From: Candidatus Eiseniibacteriota bacterium
GTDB lineage: Bacteria > Eisenbacteria > RBG-16-71-46
DNA length: 64,000 nucleotides
NCBI GenBank assembly: GCA_963717505.1
Contig: OY970342.1
Span: 3,232,001-3,296,000, forward strand
Direction of reading: 5' to 3'
Shown: in pieces, positions 59,040-59,786 of the stretch
Layout of the letters: every line of letters begins with the position of its first letter
Numbering within the stretch: the stretch's first letter is position 1
The notes under the pieces: generated by a model
Database searches by the model: none
Told to the model about the DNA's origin: nothing
What the model saw: the letters and a program-made list of their open reading frames with translations, nothing else
Translations under genes and position numbers: made by a program

Positions 59040-59786
59040 TCAGGTTCCGATGGTCAGGTCGTTCACCGCCGCCGGCGCGGTCTGATCCGGCGTGACGATC
59101 TGGATCACGTTCGAGATCGGGGAAATGTTGCCGACCTCGTCCAGCGCCCGGATCGCGATGTAGTACGTGGTCTGGCGGCTCAAACCGTTGACGGTGAAGT
59201 TGTGGACGGTTCCCGGATTCCCGGGAGCCGGTTCGCCATTGGCCTGCGTCGCGGAGGACCAGTTGCCTTCGGTGACCGGGGAGGTCGAATAGCGAACGTC
59301 GAAAGTCGTGGCCTGACCCGTGCCGCCGTCGTCCCCGGAAGCGTTCCAGCGCAACGCGACCGACGTCTCGTTGATCGAGGTCGAGGTCAGCGTCGCCGGC
59401 GCGCCCGGGGCGGCCGTGTCGAGCGCCAGCGTCGTCCGGGTGATGATGTTCGAGATCGCGGCCCAGTTCGGCACCTCGTCCCCGGTCTTCAGGGCGAAGT
59501 AGTAGGTGGTCGAGGGCGACAACCCGGTGACCGTCACGCTCTGCGTGCTGCCCGGCGAGGTTGGCGCCGGCATCGCCGTCCACCGCGTTGCGGACGCGAA
59601 ATTCGAGGCGGTGATCGCCGAAGTCGAGTAACGCAGATCGTACTGAGAAGCGATTCCGGTGAGACTGTCGTCACCCGTTGCGGTCCAGGTCAGGGTGATG
59701 CTGTTGTGGGTCTCCTGGGCCGCCACCACACCGGGGGCGAGGACACCCGCAGCGGCCAGAATCAAGATCAAGGAATTCCAACGCAT
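59040..59786 (-). CDS. Secreted fibronectin type III repeat protein (two FN3 units, permuted)
   Basis: Signal peptide (VAA-Q); two L.W.A.GDD...G.A...D.RYS...V.GL...TTYY.A....DEV.N....SN units; GGAGG RBS 6 nt before ATG 59786. Confidence 0.88.
   Translation of the reverse strand: MRWNSLILILAAAGVLAPGVVAAQETHNSITLTWTATGDDSLTGIASQYDLRYSTSAITASNFASATRWTAMPAPTSPGSTQSVTVTGLSPSTTYYFALKTGDEVPNWAAISNIITRTTLALDTAAPGAPATLTSTSINETSVALRWNASGDDGGTGQATTFDVRYSTSPVTEGNWSSATQANGEPAPGNPGTVHNFTVNGLSRQTTYYIAIRALDEVGNISPISNVIQIVTPDQTAPAAVNDLTIGT

Follow-up and report, generated by a model that had tools for sequence, protein, structure and literature searches.

Can fibronectin type III (FN3) domains, whose extracellular fold is among the most common across all of life, be joined into chains by lending each other a strand? 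A single gene raises this question within the stretch analyzed here (the window), which comprises 64,000 nucleotides of a Candidatus Eiseniibacteriota bacterium genome (assembly GCA_963717505.1, contig OY970342.1, forward-strand positions 3,232,001 to 3,296,000; coordinates below are window positions unless another contig or locus is named). The gene lies on the minus strand at 59040..59786, stop included, and encodes a 248-residue precursor with two FN3 units, the first of which opens without its first strand while the protein ends in a spare copy of that strand. The original prediction, made from the sequence alone, held that the tail of subunit n fills the open groove of subunit n+1, giving a head-to-tail FN3 filament. 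Our analysis established the layout, register, conservation and operon linkage of this gene family together with a modeled trans interface. We favor, at a probability of about 0.5, a reading in which the product would act as a donor-strand subunit chained onto PorV-anchored bases, as structure models and gene neighborhoods suggest.

Layout of the FN3 tandem

Family-level statistics refer to an alignment of 49 sequences, namely the window protein and 48 of 120 listed homologues, which took part, not all, of the two-FN3 size class of 248–295 residues. In the translation, the mature protein opens with QETHNSITLTW directly after a predicted 23-residue signal peptide (59718..59786, minus strand, ending ..GVVAA), recognized by its hydrophobic N-terminus and an AXA↓Q site (arrow, cleavage). 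Cleavage before Q was placed by the AXA↓Q rule and the invariance of Q1 (49/49 aligned) rather than with a dedicated predictor; a heuristic signal-peptide caller often picked earlier sites inside the hydrophobic region (offsets 20–24), and the invariant A↓Q was used instead. Domain 1, the proposed acceptor, comprises mature residues 1–96 (59430..59717, minus strand) and lacks strand A according to both AlphaFold2 (AF2) and profile alignment. It is followed by a linker and a complete FN3 domain 2 with its own strand A (residues 97–208; 59094..59429, minus strand; Pfam and AF2) and by the C-terminal tail, the proposed donor (residues 209–225; 59043..59093, minus strand), which reads TPDQTAPAAVNDLTIGT and was identified as an orphan linker plus strand A from the profile, column entropy and the complex model. 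The internal unit has DTAAPGAPATLTSTS ahead of SVALRW, and the protein ends in PDQTAPAAVNDLTIGT. Pfam fn3 (PF00041) matched twice (66.1 bits against a cut-off of 25, E = 3.3e-18), the best stretch being 131–231 of the 250-residue form. Translation, AF2 and profile register all agree with the predicted layout of a first FN3 without its first strand, an internal unit that has it and an orphan C-terminal copy.

The AF2 monomer model of the mature protein, built on the 49-sequence alignment, had a mean predicted local distance difference test (pLDDT) score of 93. Strands B, C, E, F and G of domain 1 were placed at 6–12, 25–31, 58–64, 71–79 and 92–95 with none before B, the mature domain beginning about five residues before that strand, while domain 2 had strand A at 111–115 and strand B at 120–125. 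Domain 2 thus conforms to the seven-stranded A-B-E/C-C'-F-G sandwich and domain 1 is an incomplete FN3. The same model bears on the possibility that the tail completes domain 1 of its own chain to form a closed two-domain monomer, for which the formal complementarity of tail and domain 1 alone speaks. Residues 209–225 formed no strand and stayed unpaired in cis, domain 1 showed no strand A, and strand G of domain 2 lies only about four residues ahead of the tail strand. In the FN3 fold, strand G ends at the pole opposite the start of strand A, which counts against closure within one chain, and the complex model described below places the tail in trans. We regard cis closure as very improbable, and the cis-only binding that had been raised as a counter-possibility did not appear in the monomer model.

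We then determined the register of the three segments with a profile hidden Markov model of 113 positions made from domain 2 of the 49 family members. In the window protein, domain 1 residues 3–94 aligned to profile positions 21–112, domain 2 residues 99–207 to positions 4–112 and tail residues 209–223 to positions 3–17. Extended to the termini, the tail covers positions 3–19 and domain 1 positions 19–113, with T225 and Q1 both at position 19, and tail and domain 1 therefore add up to one FN3 with a single-residue overlap, the 17-residue tail duplicating an FN3 linker together with its strand A. In 36 of the 49 precursors domain 1 begins at profile positions 16–21, while in the other 13 its alignment starts at 8–15 by extending into the signal peptide; for 40 of the 49 a tail match was reported, beginning at position 2 or 3. 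One incomplete beta-sandwich and one unpaired terminal strand per subunit are conserved in 49/49 aligned relatives. Foldseek searches of the PDB with the models of this protein and of the operon partner described below returned ordinary FN3 tandems as best matches and no pilins, and nothing specific to the partner's C-terminal domain, since FN3 matches dominate.

Conservation of the orphan strand

Of 4213 candidates, 1366 were homologues at E ≤ 0.001. When 185,579 species genomes were scanned, 409 relatives were found, the closest 80 of which were mostly titled Candidatus Eisenbacteria, while more distant ones were titled Zixibacteria, Ignavibacteria, Planctomycetota, Candidate Phyla Radiation (CPR) and Micrarchaeota and were mostly large multi-domain proteins. 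Matches at E ≤ 1e-30 occurred in 14 of 15 genomes of the same family and in 0 of 10 from two other families of the order.

The tail was the most conserved segment of the protein, with a mean column entropy of 0.56 bits compared to 1.23 bits for the linker and strand A of domain 2, 0.66 for domain 1, 0.80 for the rest of domain 2 and 0.76 for the whole protein. Q1 and the tail residues T209, D211, P215 and L221 are invariant in the alignment, and P210, T213, A216, A217, D220 and G224 are at least 90% conserved. These values indicate that, at the level of sequence, the orphan tail is under tighter constraint than the strand A that works in cis in domain 2.

A regular-expression census found an A↓Q-open start together with a tail in 107 distinct two-FN3 proteins, 100 with tails reaching 9–45 residues past the DL motif and 7 short-tailed like that of the window; the census is rough and mis-sorts several three-FN3 proteins, and the two-FN3 rows alone were used. 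Short-tailed orthologues 81, 74 and 68% identical to the window protein (P0003, P0007 and P0017) end in ..IGT or ..IGS, and because they share the same end, the stop is not a recent accident. The predicted conservation of a missing N-terminal strand and an orphan C-terminal one is therefore supported by the 49 aligned sequences and the 107 two-FN3 proteins, but it does not extend to a three-FN3 subfamily that seems to keep strand A.

Tails differ in type among relatives. Long tails, present in most Eisenbacteria relatives (P0036–P0120, L011–L054), continue with an aromatic-hydrophobic ..VGFLWLGWH.., a variable part and a basic end, often ..GGR; this extension of about 25–35 residues past the DL motif is conserved in the Eisenbacteria clade and absent from the window gene. 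The extra residues may form a sheet-extending hairpin or a degenerate strand B. P0009, P0013, P0030 and others combine a short tail with an N-terminus that seemingly includes strand A, and in a third tail type, found in three-FN3 proteins of about 383 residues (P0006, P0015, P0021, P0025 and others), the strand A motif is followed by an end made up solely of hydrophobic residues (..DLAAVIDLIFMSNLV). How strands are donated and accepted may vary among these subfamilies.

A modeled trans interface

When two mature copies were modeled together, the interaction prediction score from aligned errors (ipSAE) was 0.48, 0.43 and 0.45 (median 0.45), whereas three controls with unrelated proteins substituted for the whole partner gave at best 0.00; our own alignment of homologues was used. 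Runs agreed in at least 87% of contacts, with a partner pLDDT of at least 84. In calibration, 20 of 30 proteins whose solved structures are pairs of one chain reached the mark, versus 1 of 23 with single-chain structures, a comparison that is rough here given the use of our own alignment.

The modeled interface was one-directional, with tail residues 211–225 of copy 1 set against domain 1 of copy 2 (residues 1–2, 7–12, 14–17, 23, 60, 74–80, 82, 84–92 and 94), touching strands B and F and the F-G region. Residue 223 contacted 8–10, residue 221 contacted 10–11, 74–76 and 89, residue 220 contacted 12, and residue 218 contacted 11–12. In this model the tail runs antiparallel to strand B and L221 faces the core, a placement that corresponds to strand A. 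The predicted structures are thus compatible with insertion of the tail as strand A of domain 1 in trans. The further claim, that the tail of one subunit fills the next, gains from the complex model, the register, the conservation and the absence of cis pairing, while its extension to a long homopolymeric filament goes beyond these results and is only inferred.

Operon partners and the identity of the acceptor

The loci compiled numbered 108, of which the genome collection supplied 80 and the organism's own and related genomes 28; removal of duplicates and one false positive (L072) left 48 distinct tail-type genes. A gene for a protein ending in a C-terminal domain (CTD) lay within 1600 nt downstream of 43 of the 45 tail genes that had at least 1100 nt of downstream sequence (misses: the window gene and L026), and a PorV/PorQ gene lay within 2000 nt downstream of 31 of the 34 that had at least 2100 nt (misses: L026, L051 and L084). 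A second pair of CTD and barrel genes was present for 7 of the 21 tail genes with at least 5200 nt downstream. At L014, L019–L021, L024, L031 and L036, a second CTD protein (two FN3 plus CTD) and a second PorV/PorQ barrel are encoded about 3.3–4.1 kb past the tail gene, and one donor subunit may serve two anchored stalks.

In the organism's own genome the operon lies outside the window (G000:C1:91897-94620; L002, L004), in the order long-tailed gene, CTD gene, barrel gene. Its tail-type gene (C1:93889-94620) is 52% identical to that of the window, and its product closes with a long tail of the form ..SVGWVHVSWRTS...EAR. The gene in the window, an additional short-tailed paralogue, stands apart from this operon as an orphan. 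Barrels matched family NF033709 (124.6 bits for own-genome C1:91897-92715 and 114.9 bits for L011:9816-10850; cut-off 90). Divergently oriented upstream of the own-genome operon is a PilT-type ATPase gene (T2SSE, 8.7e-36), and a prepilin peptidase gene (A24_N_bact 1.1e-26, Peptidase_A24 2.3e-18) stands divergent beside the tail-CTD-PorV operon of the Eisenbacteria locus L011 (6602-7366, minus strand); these neighbors may be due to chance or to a link with type IV pilus genes.

The CTD protein likewise carries a putative acceptor domain. In the own-genome partner (L002 441-1409, minus strand), an FN3 starts right after the signal peptide (AYG↓QGVDTVVVRW) and is followed by an FN3-like domain and an FlgD_ig C-terminal domain, and 38 distinct partners share a start of the form ..A(H/R)A↓Q..DS(V/L)xLxW. 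AF2 modeled the own-genome partner (34-row alignment, pLDDT 87.5) with a domain 1 without strand A, a complete second domain (strand A at 109–113) and a C-terminal sandwich at 211–294. Its domain 1 is 50% identical to that of the window protein and in the same register, and the partner carries this open domain but no donor tail. The CTD matched FlgD_ig (2.6e-11 and 3.3e-11) and, weakly, the C-termini of PorZ (0.0029) and PorU (0.038). Pfam and family scans found no C-terminal sorting domain (TIGR04183 or PF18962) in the window protein. Since the genome holds 126 FlgD_ig matches, 17 PorV_fam matches (at least 9 over the cut-off) and one SprA_N match (82 bits), an export and anchoring system resembling a type IX secretion system (T9SS), with the FlgD_ig domain as its tag, is plausible. 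Four of the 126 FlgD_ig matches lie inside the window, at 12081-12281 (minus), 27484-27669 (plus), 44000-44173 (plus, in a 3026-residue open frame) and 63086-63217 (minus), and the domain seems to serve this organism as an all-purpose tag at the C-terminus of many large proteins that it secretes.

These partners complicate the claim that the acceptor is another copy of the same protein: the self-complex model agrees with it, but the operon offers other acceptors in the FlgD_ig-CTD proteins with their open domain 1. The tail could plug solely into these neighbors without any self-polymerization, serving 1:1 anchoring or piggyback export through a T9SS-like system, with the open domain 1 of the tail protein left free or otherwise bound. 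Such an adaptor would suit the tight linkage of tail and CTD genes, a partner that accepts without donating, and a tail protein that has no sorting domain in a genome rich in the domains just counted. It fits poorly with a self-complex model that passes its controls, with the persistence of the window gene and its 68–81% identical short-tailed orthologues, the window copy standing away from partner genes, and with the subunit's own domain 1, which retains the same conserved open start as that of the partner. We consider a purely heterotypic adaptor rather unlikely.

Weighing the evidence

Several results weigh against our preferred reading of a chained donor-strand subunit. All of its support is computational, and AF2 is confident in a domain 1 without strand A; because strand A lies at the edge of its sheet, an FN3 with six strands may be stable without it. 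The passing complex model shows compatibility rather than binding, because the predictor tends to complete familiar folds with any fitting strand and because the controls exchanged the entire partner rather than the tail alone. Profile matches of the tail reach only −1.5 to 6.1 bits and are individually non-significant, and it is conservation that places the layout beyond chance. Within domain 1, residues of the modeled interface showed no significant excess of conservation over the remaining ones (1195 of 10,000 random sets were as low), and mutual information with average-product correction found no covariation between tail and domain 1 in 108 distinct two-FN3 sequences; the top covarying pairs mixed domain 1 and domain 2 without enrichment at the modeled interface, a result that is uninformative in either direction. 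Most relatives carry about 30 extra tail residues (..VGFLWLGW...GGR) that lie outside what the model explains. The three-FN3 subfamily (14 proteins by a heuristic with a 15-residue offset) seems to keep a strand-A core, with mature N-termini such as GLAASP.., QFLASS.. and LLVASG.., and also keeps the orphan tail (..NLQASSE), which in these proteins must either displace the retained strand or have another task. On the side of anchoring, the partner CTD matches only FlgD_ig, its TIGR04183 score of 14.6 bits falling below the cut-off of 23, and the window copy has no operon partners beside it.

Part of this evidence would follow if the tail were the leftover of a lost third FN3, the protein being an off-register truncation of a longer array, with the tail kept as a tag for export, processing or a PorV-type barrel and domain 1 a stable six-stranded FN3. 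Longer relatives do continue into further domains (P0121 and many large proteins), long tails look like a strand A with a degenerate strand B behind it (that of P0088 matches positions 3–28 of the domain-2 profile), and both the tail of the three-FN3 subfamily, present despite a seemingly retained strand A, and the lack of covariation can be counted in favor of a vestige. It is harder to reconcile with a tail more conserved than the functional cis strand, a short-tail class that stops exactly where domain 1 begins, and strand-A hydrophobics (L221, I223/V) that are kept and are buried in the model. We judge a vestige or another role of this kind unlikely, yet worth keeping in view.

A proposed route of assembly

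As we picture the donor-strand mechanism, the gene product would be secreted as a subunit equivalent to a tandem FN3 array in circularly permuted form. Removal of the signal peptide would leave domain 1 open, with one sheet edge and part of the core exposed, and the spare tail strand would exit domain 2 at the far pole. The tail would act in trans because from that pole it cannot reach its own domain 1; it would lie antiparallel to strand B of domain 1 in another molecule and complete the fold there, that is, by donor-strand complementation. With one donor and one acceptor per subunit, the outcome would be an open-ended, non-covalent head-to-tail chain. Such chains probably start on the neighbor-encoded, acceptor-only proteins made up of an open FN3, a complete FN3-like domain and the FlgD_ig CTD, and these bases are probably held at the outer membrane by their dedicated PorV/PorQ-type barrel, by analogy with PorZ held by PorQ and PorU by PorV. 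The tail protein, which carries no sorting domain, may be exported in complex with its CTD partner, and the short-tailed product of the window gene may lengthen or cap chains that the operon copy has started. From the models and the gene context we infer the site of cleavage, binding itself, the length of the polymer, its place at the surface and its role, and a fibril or adhesive coat is a guess at that role.

A wider version of this picture is an 'FN3 pilus', a new class of chaperone-free bacterial surface fiber made of permuted FN3 tandems on PorV/PorQ-held stalks, its subunits crossing the outer membrane on the CTD partner, that would be widespread in uncultured phyla of the Fibrobacterota-Chlorobiota-Bacteroidota (FCB) group (Eisenbacteria, Zixibacteria and others). 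We offer it tentatively and, with all its parts taken jointly, lean toward doubting it. The novelty, at the even odds given to the underlying reading, would lie in a fold and an anchor that are both new to donor-strand assembly; the principle itself is already known. Donor-strand complementation underlies several pilus classes, each with its own pilin fold, and the present case, if true, would add a pilus-like assembly route, tied to T9SS-type anchoring, to phyla known only from metagenomes. It would also supply a minimal (225-residue), chaperone-free and sequence-defined module for building protein chains, and a natural model for the long-discussed idea of FN3 strand exchange.

Gene boundaries and genomic surroundings

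The predicted gene coordinates held, both in the open reading frame list with its translation and in the signals around it. A Shine-Dalgarno GGAGG read from the sequence (59793..59797, minus strand) stands 6 nt ahead of the ATG at 59786. An alternative ATG at 59792 directly abuts GGAGG, and the database homologue P0002 is also 248 residues long, which makes 59786 the likely start. The stop codon occupies 59040-59042 on the minus strand and is followed after 36 nt by a terminator-like hairpin and T run (58981..59004, minus strand); the scan found one site against a shuffle mean of 0.7, which is weak alone, but the site is placed exactly at the gene end.

Truncation or an assembly artefact, considered as a source of the unusual C-terminus, was rejected: the gene lies inside a single 4.16-Mb contig, its end is common to the 68–81% identical orthologues, and a terminator follows. 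The original prediction had itself raised truncation as a concern, and this does not apply to a gene with its own terminator and more than 100 distinct homologues that end alike.

The next minus-strand gene, starting at 58981, encodes a glycosyltransferase of family 4 (GT4; Glyco_trans_1_4, 1e-37) and, together with a gene for a 551-residue protein with a faint kinase-like match (EcKL, 0.048), spans 56004-58981 (minus). The two probably form one operon separate from the FN3 gene, since their starts and stops overlap and the FN3 gene has its own terminator. On the other side and divergent from the FN3 gene is a phytase gene (60269-61879, plus; Pfam Phytase, 7.3e-70) whose product bears a genuine T9SS sorting domain of type A at its C-terminus (35.1 bits for TIGR04183, cut-off 23). 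Contigs from a metatranscriptomic library cover 59407-59555 and 59594-59744 with 3 and 10 differences, respectively, and because of these differences come from a relative; no evidence of transcription or habitat was taken from them. Parts of the stretch occur in 15 sequencing runs, none with half of the sampled words, and four of these runs were compared with it in detail.

Comparison with known systems

A full-text literature search, with most subscription journals outside its coverage, returned no description of donor-strand assembly for FN3 proteins and nothing on type IX secretion in Eisenbacteria, in line with the original prediction's statement that it knew of no such description for this fold. 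Tandem FN3 arrays (titin, neogenin, Dscam and bacterial glycosidase linkers) share the fold and arrangement and supplied the best PDB matches. Their domains, however, each include a strand A, and their chains finish with a G strand, with no permuted ends.

For the proposed anchor, the nearest likeness is found in the pairs PorZ-PorQ and PorU-PorV. PorV and PorQ anchor PorU and PorZ at the surface, non-covalently and via their C-terminal region (PMC5562754), and here a PorV_fam gene lies directly 3' of the CTD-protein gene. Those pairs are parts of a secretion and attachment machine rather than donor-strand stalks, and the partner CTD here is FlgD_ig and only weakly type A.

Chaperone-usher pili (Pap, Fim and Dr) likewise have an incomplete Ig-like sandwich completed by a neighbor's strand, which inserts antiparallel (PMC13655056). 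They lack the C-terminal G strand and use an N-terminal extension as donor, whereas here strand A is missing and the donor is C-terminal. They also need a periplasmic chaperone and an usher. In the loci here, the search for conserved neighbors covered, and found, the CTD and PorV/PorQ genes.

The closest mechanism is that of the type V pili (FimA, Mfa1) of Bacteroidia, which also have a C-terminal donor strand and whose hosts have T9SS-type secretion. Their acceptor is opened by proteolytic loss of an N-terminal strand, subunits stack non-covalently head to tail, and a subunit lacking one of the two functions ends or anchors the fiber (PMC13655056). The likeness is one of mechanism only. Type V pilins are transthyretin-like double beta-sandwiches, while the window protein matched only fn3-like Pfam families at E ≤ 0.1; they are lipoproteins, while the window precursor has a VAA↓Q motif and no N-terminal cysteine. 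Their strand is cut by gingipain after a self-complemented stage, whereas here an ordinary signal-peptide cut would open the domain and no such stage is evident. Type V fibers have a lipidated anchor pilin, whereas for the present chains the proposed anchor would be the CTD protein bound to its PorV/PorQ barrel.

A donated strand likewise joins the self-assembling beta-sandwiches of archaeal threads, cannulae, TasA and, in CPR bacteria, the Pam pili; their folds and donor positions are different, and none of them is known to use FN3 or a T9SS-type anchor. Pam pilins, for instance, have a truncated C-terminal domain of Ig-like fold that receives a linker strand, and they involve membrane-anchored chaperones (PMC13278184). 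Further families of donor-strand fibers continue to be discovered.

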